From contig JBBDYC010000008.1 of NCBI GenBank assembly GCA_040901985.1, forward strand, positions 208,490-272,489: a DNA stretch of 64,000 nt, written 5' to 3'. The position numbers were made by a program. Below are positions 33,001-39,000 of this stretch, piece after piece (positions within the stretch are counted from its first letter, which is position 1; each line of letters begins with the position of its first letter). Origin of the DNA: Gemmatimonadaceae bacterium. Its GTDB lineage: Bacteria > Gemmatimonadota > Gemmatimonadetes > Gemmatimonadales > Gemmatimonadaceae.

Positions 33001-36000
33001 ACGCGGTCGCTGACCAGTCTCCTCTTCCTCCTTTCGCGCGGGATGTCGTGCGGCACGATCGTCGCCGCGCCGGCGGTCGTCTTCTCGGCGATTTTCGGCT
33101 GGGACATCGTCTGGTCGGTCGCCCTGATCGGCGTGCCGACGGTGACCTATACGGTGATCGGCGGCGTCCAGGCGGTGACCTGGGCGGACGTGAAGCAGAT
33201 GGTCGTGATCGTCGGCGCGCTCGTCGCGATCGTCGTGGTCCTGCTGTTCCGCCTTCCGGTCCCACTGGACGACGCGCTGCGGATCGCCGGCTCCGCCGGC
33301 CGCCTCCGGGTCTTCGACTTCTCGTTCAACCTCACCGAGACCTACACCTTCTGGTCGGGGATCATCGGCGGCACGTTCCTGATGCTCTCCTACTTCGGGA
33401 CCGACCAGAGCCAGGTGCAGCGCTACCTCACCGCCAAGTCGGTGGACCAGGCGCGCAGTTCGCTGCTGATGAGCGCCTACTGGAAGATCCCGTTGCAGGC
33501 ATTGATTCTGCTGGTCGGCGTCCTCGTCTTCCTGTTCTATCATTTCCAGGCGCCGCCGCTGTTGTACAATCCGGCGCACGAGCGGCAGCTGCGCGCGGCC
33601 GACCCGGGGGCGTACGTCGCGCTCGAGGAGCGCTACCGGGCGGCGGTGACGGAGCGCGAGGAATTTGCGCTGGCGACCTCGAGCTTTCGGGCACAGGGAC
33701 GCGGGCCGGCGGTGGACGAGGCGGCGCTTGGCGCCTATCGCGACCGCGAGGCGGCCGTCACGGCAATCCGCGGCGAGGCACTCGGCGCGGTTGAGCGCGT
33801 CACCGGGCAGGCGTCACGCGACGTGAACTTCATCATGCCGCGATTCGTGCTCGACCATCTTCCGCTCGGGATGGCCGGGCTCTTCCTTGCCGCGGTGCTC
33901 GCGGCGGCGATGTCGAGCATTGCCGCCGAATTGAACTCGCTCTCGACCGCCACGGTGGTGGACTTCTACAAACGCTGGGCGCGCCCGACCGGCACCGATG
34001 CGCATTACCTGAAGGTCTCGAAGCTCGCCACCGCGTGTTGGGGCATCTTCGCCTGCGTCGTGGCGACCCAAGCGGCGACGCTCGGCTCGCTGATCGAGGT
34101 GGTGAACCGCTTCGGCTCCTTCTTCTACGGTTCAATTCTCGGAGTCTTCATCCTCGCGATGATCGGCCGCGCCAAGCCGGTCGGCGCGTTCCTTGGCCTG
34201 ATCGCCGGGATGGGCACAGTGGCGGCGGTCTCGTACTTCTACCCGCAGGTCGCCTTCCTCTGGCACAACGTGATTGGCGCGGTGACGGTCGTGTCGGTGG
34301 GGATGGTGCTGAGCCTGCCGCGGTCGCCGGAGTCCCCCGCCGCGGCGTGAGAGGATATGCCGGCGCGGCCGCATAGGGCGTGCATCCCGCGCATACCAAT
34401 GCGTCGGCGCGCCGCCGCGCCCTCGCCCCGCTACTCTCCAGGCATGGCCAACATCAGGATCATCGGCGTTCCAATGGACCTCGGCGCCAGTCGCCGCGGC
34501 GTGGATATGGGGCCGTCCGCCGTCCGGTACACCGATCTTCGCGACCGCGCGGCCAAACTCGGGCACACGGTCGAGGACACCGGGAACGTGCCGGTGCCGT
34601 TCCGCGAGGATGCGGCGCGCGGGGCGCAGCGTGGCGCGCGCTATCTCGGCGCGATCACCGACGTCTGCGTGGAGGTGGCGGCGCGCACGCGCGCCGCGCT
34701 CGCCGACGGGCGGATCCCGGTCGTGTTGGGCGGCGACCACTCGATTGCCGCCGGCTCGATCGCCGGCGCGGCGGCGCACCTGCGGGCCGCCGGCCAGCGG
34801 CTCGGCGCCGTCTGGGTGGACGCGCACGGCGACCTGAACACCCCCGCCACCTCGCGCTCGGGGAACGTCCACGGGATGCCGCTCGCCGCGCTCCTCGGCA
34901 ACGGTGACAAGGCGATGGCGGGAATCGCAGGCGGCGGGGCGGCGTTGAGGGCGAGCGATGTCGCGCTGGTCGGGCTTCGCGACCTCGATGGGCCGGAGCG
35001 CGCCCACATCAGGAAGTGGGGACTCACCGCGTTCACGATGCGGACGCTCGACGAGCGAGGCACGCGCGCCGTCCTCGAGGAGGCGATCACCCTGGCGACG
35101 CGCGACACCGCGGGGTTCTGGGTCTCGTTCGACGTGGATGTCATTGACCCCGAGGAGGCGCCGGGCGTCGGCACCGCCGTCCCCGGCGGGATGACGTATC
35201 GGGAGGCGCACCTCGCGATGGAGATGTTCGCCGACACCGGGAAGCTCGTCGGCATTGACGTCGTCGAGGTGAACCCGGTGCTCGACGAGCACAACCGGAC
35301 GGCGGAGATTGCCTGCGAGCTCATCCTCAGCGCGCTGGGCAAGCGCATCCTCTGAGCGCGCGATGACGATCCGCTACGTCCCGCCCGACTTCACGGCGCC
35401 GCCACTCGCCAAGGCGCCGGCCGCGCGCACGGTGGCGGCGCCCGCCGACGGCGTACTGCCCGACGGCTTTTTCGCCACGACCAACCTTCCGACCTACGTG
35501 AAGGGAGCCGACGGCACCTGGACCTTGCCACGCGAACCGCGGATGGACGGCGTGCTGGTGCGCGACGGGGGCGGCTGGATCGTACGCGAGGGCCGCCGTG
35601 TGAAGGCCGGCGACGCCGTGGTGATGGGGCTCGCCGAGGACGGGAGCGAGGGCGTGCTTGTCCACTCGCGCGGATTCCGGCCCGACGACGGCCCCGGCGG
35701 CGACTTCCACTTCATGTCGAGCCAGGTCTCGCGCGAGAAGCCGATTGACTACGCGCTGATCGCGCGGATGCTCGTCGAGGAGAAGCGCCGCGGCGGCTAC
35801 GTGCTCTGGGTGACCGGGCCGGCGCTTGTCCATTCCCGCGCACGCGACAACCTCGTTTGGTTCATCCGCAACGGGTACGTGCAGGCCCTGCTCGCCGGCA
35901 ACGCCGTGGCCGTGCACGACATCGAGGCGGCGGTCGTCGGGACGACGCTCGGGATGACGAGCGAAGGCGAGCCGACGGCGGGCGGGCACGCCGCGCATAT

Positions 36001-39000
36001 GCGGGCGATCAACGCGGTGCGCCGTGCCGGCTCGATCGCGGCGGCGGTGAAGGCGGGACTGGTCGCCGACGGCATCATGCACGCCTGCGTCGTCGAGGAG
36101 GTACCGTTCGTCCTCGGGGGCTCGATCCGCGACGACGGACCGCTCCCCGATGTCCTCGCCGACGCGGTCGCCGCGCAGGAGGCGATGCGCGCGCACACCA
36201 TCAAGGCGACGATGGCGGTGATGATCGCCACCGCGCTCCACTCGATTGCCGTCGGAAACATGCTCCCCGCGTACTACGAGGATGCCCAGCGCGGGATGGT
36301 GGAGCTGCCGACGATCTGCGTGGACGCGAGCGAGTTCCTGGTCAGCAAGCTCAAGGACCGCGGGACGCACCAGGCGGTCGGCGTCGTCACCAACGCGCAG
36401 GACTTCATGAGCATCCTGCGTGCGGCGGTGGAGCGGGAAGTGCAGGAGTCGTCGGCGCCCTGACGCTCAGGCGGTGGCGCGCGCGTCGGCCCACGCGCCA
36501 GCGTCGCGGTCGCTCCGGATGCGCGTCGCCGTGTCCACGAGGACGTCGCCATCCTCGATCCGCACGGCGAAGCGGTCGAGATTCCGCGTGGCCTTCCCCT
36601 GGATCAACGTCCCCTCCGGCCGGAAGGTGCTCTTGTGCTTGGGGCAATAGAAGCGCGACTGGCCCGGCTGCCATTCCAGCGGCGTCTTCTTGTGCGGGCA
36701 CTCGAGCGAGAAGGCGTGCACGGCGCCGGCGTAACGGACGAGGATGATCTTGTTGGCGGTGTCAATCGTGGCCCCGTCGGCGGCCGGGATCGGATAGCGC
36801 ACCGTGTCGCCGCTGGCGCTGCCGGTTGCGTACACACGCGTCAGCGCATTGAGCCGCGCGGCCGTGGCACCGAGTGCGGTCAGCGCAGCCAGTGCCATCA
36901 GTCCGTCCCTCAGGAATGCCCGGCGGCCGGTCCCGTCTTCGCAGGCCGCTTGGCAGCGTTCGAACGCGTCGTGCTCTGACATTGGGCCTCCGGGTGGGGG
37001 TGAGGGTCGCGCCGGTGGCGCCGCGCGGCGTCCGCTGTAAGATACCATACGCCCACCCCACGCATTGCGTTCCCCCGACCGGAGTCCCGATGGCGTTCAC
37101 CCCGGAGGCCCAGGCCATCTGGGACAAGGTCCCCGAGGCGACCCGCGCCAAGCTCCTCGACAGCGGCTTCTGCAGTCGGTGCCTGGCCCCGCGCCACTTC
37201 GACCTCACCGAGGGCTCGTTGCGCGATCGGGAACTTGTGCTGGTCGGCAAGTGTGGGACGTGTGGGGCCCGCGTGGTCCGCCTCATCGAACTTGACTGAG
37301 CAACGTGCAATGATCCATCTCCGCCCCTCAGCGCCGCTCCTCGCGCTCTGCGTCACACTCGCCGCGTCGCCGCTCGGCGCCCAGGTGACGCCCCGCTGGG
37401 AGGAGATCGGAAGGACGTCCACCGGGAACACGGTGTACCTCGATCCCCGCAGCATCTCGCGCGACTCGACGGGAATCATCACGGCCACCGTGCGCGTGGT
37501 CTACACGACGCCGGTGGACACCCCGCAGGGACCGATCACCGGGTCACGGGCAATCGCGATGTTCGACTGCGCTGGCCGGAAGGTCGCGGTGAAGGAGAAC
37601 ATCATCTGGCACGACGAGCGGCGCGGCACGGTCTACCGCCGGAGCGCGCCGACCCGACCGGGGTTCGGGCCCGCCCTCACCAGCACCTTCGCCCACGTCG
37701 CGCTCGAACATCTCTGCGCGCCGCTCCAGCGGCCCGGCTGACGCCCTACCGGATCGTGATGTAGCGCTCGAGCCGCGCCACTTCCTTGGCGTCCACGTAC
37801 TTCCCGATCTCGCGGCGGAACTGCTCAACCGCGCGGTAGGGGCGGTACTCCTTGAACTCGCGCAGCATCCGCGGCCCAAGCCCGGGAATCGTCATCAGGT
37901 CCGCGTCGCTCGCCGTGTTCAGGTCCATCGGCACGAAGACATACTGCTCGAGCCGGGCGACCGCCGTCGAGTCCACGTGTCGGCCGATCTCGCGGCGAAA
38001 CTGCGCCATCGCCCGGTAGGGGCGATGGTCGAGGAACTCACTCACCATCCGCGATCCGATGCCGGGGATGAGGGAGATCTCCTCTCGCGTCGCCGTGTTG
38101 ACGTCAATGTGCACGAAGAGCCGCGGATAGAGCGCCGTGCGCTGGTCGCCGGAGAGCCGGGGCGCAAGGAAGGCATCGAACGCCGCGGCGGAGAGGAACG
38201 GGCGGGCCGCGACGATCTCCTGCGCGAGCGCGGCGGTCAGCCCGGGCAGCTGGGCCATCTCCCCCACCGCCGCGGTGTTGGCCTCCAGCGCAGTGACCGC
38301 CCGCCCGACCTGGGCATCGAGCGGAAGCGCGAGGAGCGCGATGAGGGTGACGGCACTACGAACGGAACGAACGGGCATATCAGGGTCCTGGCGGCGGGGT
38401 GAGGGCAGGGTGGCGGTACGCGTAGAGCAAGCCAAGCAGTCCGAACTGGACGAGCGTCCCGGGCGCGAGCATCGGCGTCGCGCCGCGCAGCACCTCGATC
38501 CAGAACTCGAGCCCTGCCGAATCGGGGTTCAACTCCCTTTCGAACTCGAAGTTCCCCCACGAGTGCAGCGCCACGCCGACGGTGCCGGCGACGATCAGCA
38601 GGAGCATCACCACCTGAAAGGCGCGCAGGCTCCGCTTCCGCCCGTCCAGCCAGTGCCAGAGGATGCTGGCGAGCGTAAGGCTGAGGAGGACGAGGGGCGT
38701 CCATTGGAACGGCTCCTCGTAGTGCTCGAGCAACACGAGTTCGACGAGGATCCCGGCCGAGCCGAAGGCGAGCAGGGCCAGGAGACCGCGCCGCAACAGG
38801 GAGAGCGAATCGGCGGACGTCACGGGAGCCCGGGATCGGGGTGGTGTGCGCAACGACGGTGGCTTGAACATATCCCCTTCAGCGGCCAAGTTCACGTCAC
38901 CCGCAACTCCGCCGCGCAGCGCGCGGCCGCACCCCGGAGGACCCGATGGCCCGTCCGTCCCGGCTGTCCGACGCTGAGGTCACGCGCCGCCTCGCCGCAC

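Follow-up and report, generated by a model that had tools for sequence, protein, structure and literature searches.

The window analysed here is the whole stretch of 64,000 nucleotides (positions 208,490 to 272,489 of contig JBBDYC010000008.1, assembly GCA_040901985.1) from a Gemmatimonadaceae bacterium, the genome of which is 2.64 Mb in size and 99.97% complete. Three genes that follow one another on the same strand were considered in this study:

32659..34350, + strand: sodium:solute symporter family gene, 563 aa (PF00474, TIGR00813)
34444..35355, + strand: arginase, rocF-type (arginine to ornithine plus urea), 303 aa (PF00491, TIGR01229)
35363..36463, + strand: ornithine cyclodeaminase (OCD), short form of the ArgZ-C/TIGR00300 superfamily, 'ODC_var' type, 366 aa (PF21570, PF21571, NF052526)

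The start of the arginase was taken at the internal ATG at 34444 within the open reading frame 34357-35355 (+), and that of the OCD at the ATG at 35363 within the frame 35309-36463 (+). The arginase stop is separated from the OCD start by a 7-base spacer, no terminator-like site was found between the two genes, and they are presumably co-transcribed. The symporter stop lies 93 bases before the arginase; no terminator-like site was found between the two, the two nearby ones falling within the symporter gene, and the symporter is possibly a third gene of the unit. Its product scored 151 bits on PF00474 and 244 bits on TIGR00813 (cut-off 184), reached 89.9 against a cut-off of 515.5 on the PutP model, and likewise missed the PanF cut-off by far. 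Of 80 related loci, 41 had an arginase match on the upstream side of the OCD, immediately adjoining it in 40 of them and roughly 1 kb distant in L042; in 22 the symporter, with 70-80% identity, stood upstream of the arginase-OCD pair. LarE was located approximately 3 kb upstream of the pair in two loci (L041 and L043), and a PutA gene 1.3 kb from it in the Verrucomicrobiota locus L052. For the more distant relatives, with OCDs 55-72% identical, no adjoining arginase was found, and the OCD comes after priA in the loci scanned.

The arginase was assigned by profile searches, with 255.2 bits on PF00491 and 279.7 bits on TIGR01229. The latter score passes the equivalog cut-off of 227.6 and exceeds those on the agmatinase and formimidoylglutamase models (agmatinase 97.9 bits, hutG 99.8 bits, each far under its own cut-off). 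The translation contains GGDHS, DAHGD and SFDVDVIDP, which we take to be the metal-binding motifs of arginases.

The OCD exceeded the cut-off of 27 on both Pfam models of its superfamily (PF21570, 263.8 bits; PF21571, 30.5 bits). Its best-scoring model was NF052526, 'putative NPN-dependent ornithine cyclodeaminase', which is matched end to end (6-362 of its 364 positions) with 433.7 bits, a near miss of 6 bits against the cut-off of 440; a 60%-identical cluster representative (P0121) lies just above it with 440.4. On TIGR00300, the model of the archaeal nickel-pincer OCD, the score was 309.5 bits, well under the cut-off of 410.8, so that neither equivalog cut-off for a nickel-pincer OCD was reached. 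The protein has the same short architecture as the NF052526 family, the function of which is itself only putative. It shares the PF21570 plus PF21571 superfamily and the conserved motifs with the archaeal enzyme and differs from it in lacking some 80 N-terminal residues (no match to the LOR/SDH region PF04455; the TIGR00300 match begins at model position 83 of 407) and in having a 10-residue insertion after GNMLP. Motifs were defined by conservation across the superfamily, and in an alignment that comprised 14 variant, 16 canonical and 4 ArgZ-type sequences (34 in all) the window's protein retains every one of them: DGV.P, GPA..H, GNA.A.HD.E, GH..H...IN, GSIRDDGPLP, LH.IA.GNM.P and DRG. The closest solved relative is 3c2q (E 1.4e-71), likewise a short form with 345 aa, and the C-terminal domains of AgrE (6lrf/6lrh; E 1.4e-63) and ArgZ (6juy) are also among the best; the PDB copy searched contained no structure of the family in holo form. 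The AgrE/ArgZ model NF052231 was matched in its C-terminal part alone (369-693 of 696, 255.6 bits against 1025), and the N-terminal arginine dihydrolase fusion is absent from the 366-aa protein. Natural fusions of the OCD domain do occur, with arginine dihydrolase in P0142, P0156, P0160 and P0192 and with arginase in P0201 (1021 aa). Ornithine is the probable substrate, since an arginase adjoins the gene and both kinds of fusion exist, and the enzyme would convert it to proline and ammonium.

Profile searches of the whole genome bore out the survey's finding that this pair occurs in the absence of proA, proB and proC. No match was obtained for ProC (PF14748 and TIGR00112) or ProA (TIGR00407), ProB gave no more than 26.6 and 18.9 bits, where the cut-off is 186, and PF02423, the family of the classical NAD+-dependent, mu-crystallin-type OCDs, gave no match at E <= 0.001. 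The latter enzymes catalyse the same net reaction and offer the same proC-independent proline route, but their fold is unrelated to that of the OCD in the window. With all four missing, no proline-forming enzyme other than the archaeal-type OCD is recognisable here, and the latter is probably the only way to proline in this genome. That proline would be made only through arginase, as had been proposed, is not supported, because ArgJ (348.5 bits; ArgH was also found, with 502 bits) makes ornithine directly and so renders the arginase dispensable for proline biosynthesis, and because no adjoining arginase was found for the OCDs of the more distant relatives. Urease alpha was not found in the genome, and urea from the arginase therefore has no recognised use. 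The pair has the look of a converter of arginine into proline. Two monofunctional proline dehydrogenases (ProDH), located elsewhere in the genome, could pass proline on towards glutamate. Such a route would resemble the cyanobacterial AgrE-PutA pathway, in which, according to the available part of PMC8262935, arginine is turned into proline via ornithine and carried on to glutamate by ProDH; the net conversion, the ornithine intermediate and a homologous OCD domain are common to both. The locus described here differs in having two genes, with a separate arginase that releases urea in place of a fused, guanidine-modifying arginine dihydrolase that yields CO2 + 2 NH4+.

The genome encodes LarC (C6:30237-31367, 389 bits), LarE (C19:121806-122588, 292 bits) and LarB (C5:88532-89158, 279 bits), and no match to LarA (PF09861) was found in it, in agreement with the survey. 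The cofactor pathway that goes with a nickel-pincer OCD is thus present, as is the lack of ProC, and both features are shared with the archaeal system. PMC13524815, in the part available to us, reports an OCD with non-covalent NPAD, citing Desguin 2025 (Int J Biol Macromol 330:147799), and the NCBIfam names of TIGR00300 and NF052526 tie both models to a nickel-pincer cofactor; since the latter subfamily already bears such a name, the nickel cofactor idea is not new. On these analogies, the hydride-shuttling cofactor of the OCD would most likely be the nickel-pincer nucleotide or dinucleotide that LarB, LarE and LarC produce. The enzyme is set apart from its archaeal counterparts by its bacterial origin, its pairing with an arginase, the putative status of the cofactor, and relatives in its own order that lack LarC.

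In the survey the OCD had been named the likely client of the Lar proteins by elimination, there being no LarA. This argument fails, because the only PF00248 protein of the genome, an aldo-keto reductase (AKR), is NphT-like and a good second candidate:

C2:10238-11140, minus strand: AKR, PF00248 64.9 bits

Its best PDB match is NphT (9yeb; E 3e-15, 59 bits; next structure 2e-7), an NPMN-dependent AKR treated in the available part of PMC13524815; the similarity is weak, and NphT is related to this AKR, not to the OCD. Aligned to 9yeb, in which the chain numbering runs 3 ahead of the native one (verified at A20, A21, D47, H106, T142, I199 and K200), the AKR retains H106 as well as H144 (nickel ligand) and K200 (tethering residue), has D47 changed to E and I199 to T, and leaves T142, W218 and Y219 unaligned. 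The NphT paper uses adjacency to lar genes as a criterion, and this is not found here, with the AKR on C2 and the lar genes on C5, C6 and C19. The Lar proteins of this genome probably serve the AKR as well.

A total of 151 Gemmatimonadales genomes were searched, compared with 104 in the survey, and the proportions were similar: OCD exceeded the cut-off in 94, ProC in 16, LarC in 96 and LarA in 12. In the control genome, that of M. jannaschii, the OCD family and LarC were detected and PF14748 was not. PF02423 homologues, which had not been counted before, occurred in 105 of the 151 genomes and in none of the four sampled members of the genus studied here; members of this family have several functions, according to the available part of PMC4141209, and the matches need not be OCDs. 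The exact pattern, in which no proline enzyme but the archaeal-type OCD is recognisable, was seen in only 34 of the 151 genomes and is therefore not the rule in the order, contrary to what had been suggested. A further nine genomes lack all three of the proline enzymes counted, which shows that auxotrophy, or else some unknown route, is found among these bacteria.

The reading we hold to be the more probable one, with moderate confidence, is that the arginase-OCD unit, of two genes or possibly three with the upstream symporter, forms a route from arginine or ornithine to proline, with a cofactor that is most likely of the nickel-pincer type and with Lar genes probably shared with the AKR. Arginase would convert arginine to ornithine and urea, and the OCD would then deaminate ornithine, supplied either by this arginine conversion or, in biosynthesis, by ArgJ. 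The searches establish what the genes are, which ones are missing, how they co-occur and how they are arranged, while the OCD activity, the co-transcription, the cofactor and the physiological direction are inferred.

The strongest objection is that the OCD may need no Lar pathway, using NAD+ or another ordinary cofactor, or either kind, in which case LarB, LarC and LarE would serve the NphT-like AKR and proline would not depend on nickel. LarC is present in 82 of the 94 genomes with an OCD and in 14 of the 57 without, and also in a Corallococcus genome and a Verrucomicrobiota MAG that both bear a Gemmatimonadota-like OCD. The link between OCD and LarC is not strict, however, as the survey had already noted (9 of 78): 12 of the 94 OCD genomes lack LarC, 11 of these lack LarB too, and two are closed. 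They include all sampled OCD-bearing members of genus g8, the two closed genomes among them, and all five of g40, and 9 of the 12 have no recognisable proline enzyme besides the OCD. The OCDs of the Lar-less genomes are intact and keep every conserved motif, and the four short-form ones examined all occupy the same priA-OCD-DsbD locus. Their dN/dS ratios (0.08-0.28, against 0.07-0.16 in Lar-positive genera) are rough, because dS is near saturation, and indicate purifying selection. A closed genome devoid of LarB and LarC (G070) carries an AgrE-like fusion of 726 aa. Close homologues of the AKR, for their part, are found in genomes with both LarB and LarC in 25 of 25 cases and could explain LarC in 5 of the 14 genomes that have it without an OCD; the three retained NphT residues point the same way, and the shortfall of the window's OCD on both equivalog models also counts against the preferred reading. 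Against this, a close AKR is present in just 25 of the 96 LarC-positive genomes and in the present genome adjoins no lar gene. In 59 of the 96 the OCD occurs with neither LarA nor a close AKR; these genomes must contain some client, for which no candidate but the OCD is known. Characterised relatives are, moreover, reported to use NPAD (PMC13524815, in the part available), and the NCBIfam names agree. We consider a Lar-independent OCD unlikely on balance. That proline synthesis is possibly nickel-dependent keeps the support of the family names, the LarB, LarC and LarE genes and the 59 genomes; set against the second client and the 12 genomes without LarC, this link is weaker than was first thought.

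The pair could also be essentially catabolic, imported arginine being degraded via proline to glutamate by the two ProDH while proline itself is taken up, so that the missing proA, proB and proC would reflect auxotrophy. The conserved symporter gene on the same strand in 22 of the 80 loci, the two ProDH genes, the nearby PutA in L052, the small genome of 2.64 Mb and the nine genomes of the order without any of the three proline enzymes would all fit this explanation. The OCD would nevertheless yield proline in any case, and a cell that has ArgJ need not be auxotrophic; in distant relatives the OCD stands without arginase beside priA in the scanned loci, a housekeeping context; no urease was found to regain the urea nitrogen; and the symporter scored far beneath the PutP cut-off. 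An essentially catabolic role is accordingly improbable. That the protein is not an OCD and catalyses another LOR/SDH-like superfamily reaction on a related amino acid is very improbable: its scores below both curated cut-offs, the absence of the 80 or so N-terminal residues that TIGR00300 proteins have and our finding no report of an assayed member of the NF052526 branch would allow it, but the adjoining arginase, the natural fusions with arginase and dihydrolase, the retention of all motifs common to AgrE, ArgZ and the archaeal proteins, and the need for a replacement of proA, proB and proC argue against it.

We put forward, tentatively and as clearly less than an even prospect, that the bacterial short-form OCD is flexible in its cofactor or Lar-independent, using a pincer dinucleotide where LarB, LarC and LarE are present and otherwise NAD+ or a pincer cofactor made or acquired by an unknown route. 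If this is true, the OCD would keep working as the sole proline enzyme in several Gemmatimonadales lineages from which LarB and LarC have disappeared, and these lineages would provide a natural series of an enzyme shifting between a nickel-pincer and an ordinary nicotinamide cofactor.

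The genome under study (G000; 2.64 Mb in 19 contigs, rated 99.97% complete), whose nearest relatives are Gemmatimonas/Gemmatimonadaceae MAGs, carries in the window, C8:208490-272489, a pair of genes for arginase and ornithine cyclodeaminase (OCD), both read from the plus strand in a region of about 71-73% G+C and preceded by a symporter gene:

32659-34350, plus strand, sodium:solute symporter, ending 93 bases 5' of the arginase gene
34444-35355, plus strand, arginase, 303 aa from the internal ATG at 34444 (PF00491, 255.2 bits)
35363-36463, plus strand, OCD, 366 aa from the ATG at 35363 (PF21570, 263.8 bits; PF21571, 30.5 bits)

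The arginase scored 279.7 bits against the NCBIfam profile TIGR01229 (cut-off 227.6), and the agmatinase and formimidoylglutamase models stayed below 100 bits on it. Its stop codon lies 7 bases from the OCD start codon, no terminator-like site was found between the two genes, and a convergent Rieske-protein gene follows the OCD. The OCD protein, made up of two ArgZ-like C-terminal domains (PF21570 and PF21571), belongs to the short form of the ArgZ-C/TIGR00300 superfamily. Its top NCBIfam model was NF052526, named 'putative NPN-dependent ornithine cyclodeaminase', which matched over model positions 6-362 of 364 with 433.7 bits, 6 bits under the cut-off of 440; P0121, representative of a cluster and 60% identical, is just over it with 440.4 bits. 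TIGR00300 ('ornithine cyclodeaminase, nickel-pincer nucleotide-dependent') came second with 309.5 bits (cut-off 410.8), the match beginning at model position 83, and unlike TIGR00300 proteins the window's OCD has no N-terminal LOR/SDH region. The AgrE/ArgZ fusion model gave 255.6 bits against a cut-off of 1025. Since these NCBIfam names already carry the nickel-pincer idea to the bacterial short form, the cofactor hypothesis is not new; PMC13524815, citing Desguin 2025, says that an OCD uses non-covalent NPAD. Full-text searches found no paper that makes this link for Gemmatimonadota, and among the 120 homologues listed, all close relatives (83-100% identical), no name went beyond 'TIGR00300 family'. 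Relatives with a solved structure are 3c2q (E 1.4e-71) and, in their C-terminal domains, AgrE and ArgZ. The window's OCD differs by 10 residues inserted behind the GNMLP motif and, in the loop after GPA..H, by HSRAR where 3c2q and AgrE have HTGG. This loop was considered as a cofactor signature and dropped, because the same glycine-rich loop varies among canonical members too.

The gene content of G000 was analyzed by six-frame family searches with models that matched in 12-14 of 14 control genomes, except PF02423 (7 of 14). These searches found no P5CR_dimer, proC or proA, only fragments of proB (26.6 and 18.9 bits, cut-off 186), and no mu-crystallin-type OCD (PF02423). LarC, LarE and LarB, which serve nickel-pincer cofactor synthesis, were present on three separate contigs (389, 292 and 279 bits), and the family search for LarA found none. 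The survey's finding of the gene pair, the missing proABC and the Lar genes without LarA was thus borne out. As G000 lacks proABC and PF02423, no proline source other than the OCD is recognisable, and we regard the OCD with good confidence as an ornithine cyclodeaminase and the sole proline-forming enzyme of G000, a predicted proC-independent route like that of the archaeal OCD. The survey's wording that proline arises only through arginase was too narrow: ArgJ and ArgH were found, and since ornithine is the product of ArgJ, arginase is not needed for proline synthesis; it adds a route from arginine to proline. The two proline dehydrogenases of G000, both monofunctional, make the arrangement resemble the cyanobacterial AgrE-PutA route, outlined in PMC8262935 as running from arginine through proline to glutamate, and the window's pair is predicted to work like AgrE with the first step handed to a separate arginase. 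ArgJ, ArgH and arginase occur in G000 without urease alpha (best match 26.7 bits, cut-off 680), which was over the cut-off in 0 of 11 genomes of the genus; should argF and argG be there too, as listed by the survey, the urea cycle would be complete and its urea without a recognised fate.

Among the best 80 related loci, 41 had an arginase match upstream of the OCD, 40 of them directly and one (L042) about 1 kb off; these are all the loci with upstream DNA and an OCD sharing 77% or more identity with that of the window, together with one Verrucomicrobiota MAG. The remaining 39, eight of them with upstream DNA shorter than 1 kb, gave no arginase match at E <= 1e-10, and their OCDs are mostly 55-72% identical to the window's. 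In the scanned loci of this group the OCD gene comes after priA, and a DsbD-like membrane protein and an ABC transporter are encoded close by, which is a housekeeping context. The symporter was kept together with the pair in 22 of the best 80 loci; it matched no substrate-specific model (PutP 89.9 bits, cut-off 515.5) and may bring in a substrate of the arginase-OCD pathway. Outside the phylum, OCDs 68-69% identical to the window's were found in Corallococcus praedator (locus L085) and in the Verrucomicrobiota MAG (locus L052), which suggests lateral transfer; in the Corallococcus order the family occurs in 21 of 121 sampled genomes. Arginase and OCD travel as a pair in the Verrucomicrobiota locus, with a PutA gene 1.3 kb away. 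Natural fusions also occur, namely arginine dihydrolase-OCD (P0142, P0156, P0160 and P0192) and, in the representative library, an arginase region (residues 158-407) joined to OCD-type regions in the 1021-aa protein P0201; they support ornithine as the probable OCD substrate. The same library holds P0127, a very long protein (1866 aa) with two OCD-type stretches.

For the wider distribution, 151 genomes of the order Gemmatimonadales were analyzed, including G000 and two unpublished genomes (G077 and G088, both with OCD, LarC and LarB), and matches were counted over the curated cut-off or at a stated E-value.

Table. Occurrence of each family in the order sample (genomes of 151)
OCD (archaeal-type): 94
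ProC: 16
LarC: 96
LarB: 96
LarA: 12
PF02423: 105

Loss of proC, retained in only 16 genomes, is general in this sample. The survey had called the whole pattern the rule in the order, and in its strict form this does not hold, the archaeal-type OCD being the sole recognisable proline enzyme in only 34 of the 151 genomes (25 of them with LarC). PF02423 homologues are found in 23 of the 27 genomes of family f3, which has neither archaeal-type OCD nor Lar, and also accompany the archaeal-type OCD in 60 of its 94 genomes; nine genomes hold none of the three proline enzymes (archaeal-type OCD, ProC, PF02423). For the window's own genus the pattern stands, as all five sampled genomes have OCD, LarB and LarC and lack ProC, PF02423 and LarA.

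With regard to the cofactor, OCD and LarC occurred together in 82 genomes, OCD alone in 12, LarC alone in 14 and neither in 43, and the presence of LarB and LarC was discordant in only 4 of 151. In favour of a link, 59 of the 96 genomes with LarC have the OCD and no other known candidate client (neither LarA nor an NphT-like aldo-keto reductase), LarE lies about 3 kb from the arginase-OCD pair in 2 of 80 loci (L041 and L043), and LarC accompanies the Gemmatimonadota-like OCD both in the Corallococcus genome and in the Verrucomicrobiota MAG. LarE of G000 adjoins genes for a YifB-type ATPase and an amidohydrolase, and both types flank the OCD in L041, L043 and L011. A co-occurrence test in Myxococcales (LarC in 21 of 21 OCD genomes) was uninformative because LarC is found in 118 of 121 genomes there anyway. 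We consider it somewhat probable that the window's OCD uses the Lar-made nickel-pincer cofactor. As a separate observation, seven genomes of genus g28 (G012, G015, G036, G042, G060, G072 and G081) have a LarA-like Lar_N match of 68-80 bits without LarB or LarC; these matches are LarA homologues without the known cofactor pathway.

The surroundings of larC in G000 were also inspected. The threonine-synthase-like gene just 5' of it is split over two frames (C6, about 29070-30225; L092:5071-5616 and L092:5435-6226), the N-terminal piece covering positions 6-172 and the C-terminal piece positions 171-385 of NF006050, owing to a frameshift or to an error in the assembly; the order uvrC-thrC-larC was retained in 14 of 14 relatives examined. 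On the other side, 41 bases past larC, begins a further gene:

C6, about 31442-32794 (L092:7443-8795), radical-SAM gene (TIGR03279 'cyano_FeS_chp', 309.8 bits, cut-off 574.7)

Its distance from larC varies (0-3 kb) among the 12 of 14 relatives in which it was seen, and der always follows it immediately, so that it seems tied to der rather than larC, and it was dropped as a Lar accessory candidate.

The survey had taken the OCD for the likely client because LarA is missing. This argument by elimination fails, since a second candidate, an aldo-keto reductase (AKR) like the NPMN-dependent NphT, could account for the Lar genes of G000:

C2:10238-11140 (L131:1246-2151), minus strand, AKR, 301 aa, the only PF00248 protein in G000

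Its closest solved relative is 9yeb (the hydride transferase NphT; E 3e-15, the next AKR 2e-7). H144 of NphT is named as the nickel ligand and K200 as the covalent tether, and this motif is described as missing from NAD(P)H-dependent AKRs (PMC13524815). When aligned with 9yeb, whose chain numbering is the native one plus 3 (verified on seven named residues), the AKR of G000 conserves H106, H144 and K200 and has D47 replaced by E and I199 by T; T142, W218 and Y219 are unaligned. Close homologues (E <= 1e-50, 36-81% identity) were found in 25 genomes of the order sample, every one with both LarC and LarB. The 14 genomes with LarC and no OCD include none with LarA, five with a close AKR homologue and five with a weaker one (29-35% identity); the remaining four (G056, G083, G095 and G147) have no AKR homologue at E <= 1e-20 and hence no known client, so the order may hold yet another nickel-pincer client. 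The AKR explains the Lar genes of G000 at least as well as the OCD does, and both may be clients.

Evidence against the link comes from the 12 genomes with OCD and without LarC, 11 of which also lack LarB. They comprise all four OCD-bearing members of genus g8, all five members of g40 (one keeps LarB), and members of g32, g54 and g4 (one genome of the last); LarB and LarC are absent from 12 of 12 genomes of g8, two of which (G134 and G070) are closed. The OCD is the sole recognisable proline enzyme in 9 of the 12, every conserved motif is kept, and dN/dS within the genus comes to 0.08 for g8 and 0.12-0.28 for g40, compared with 0.07-0.16 in four Lar-positive genera, ratios that are rough (dS about 1) yet all far below 1. 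Four short-form OCDs examined from this set share the priA-OCD-DsbD locus, and G070 has a 726-aa AgrE-like fusion in place of the short form. Lar-less and Lar-positive OCDs showed no sequence differences at conserved positions. We rate it as the less likely reading that this OCD subfamily can do without Lar. Immediately 3' of the OCD, the Lar-less g32 and g54 carry a Fur-family regulator gene (L103:7060-7551 and L107:5110-5589), and other relatives have in this place a 155-163-aa ORF without a family match.

A tempting shortcut is corrected here: orphan LarB, LarC and LarE plus one candidate enzyme do not identify the client. If the cofactor link is true, proline synthesis would depend on nickel supply in the window's genus and likewise in the 25 sampled genomes with the OCD as sole recognisable proline enzyme and LarC. 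A core amino-acid pathway would then depend on a trace metal in a phylum common in soil and freshwater, which would have a bearing on cultivation media and on auxotrophies read from genomes. The exceptions may be more useful, namely the 11 genomes with an intact, constrained OCD and neither LarB nor LarC, whose OCDs, together with the NphT-like reductase of G000, make up a concrete protein set bearing on how strict nickel-pincer dependence is in this enzyme family.
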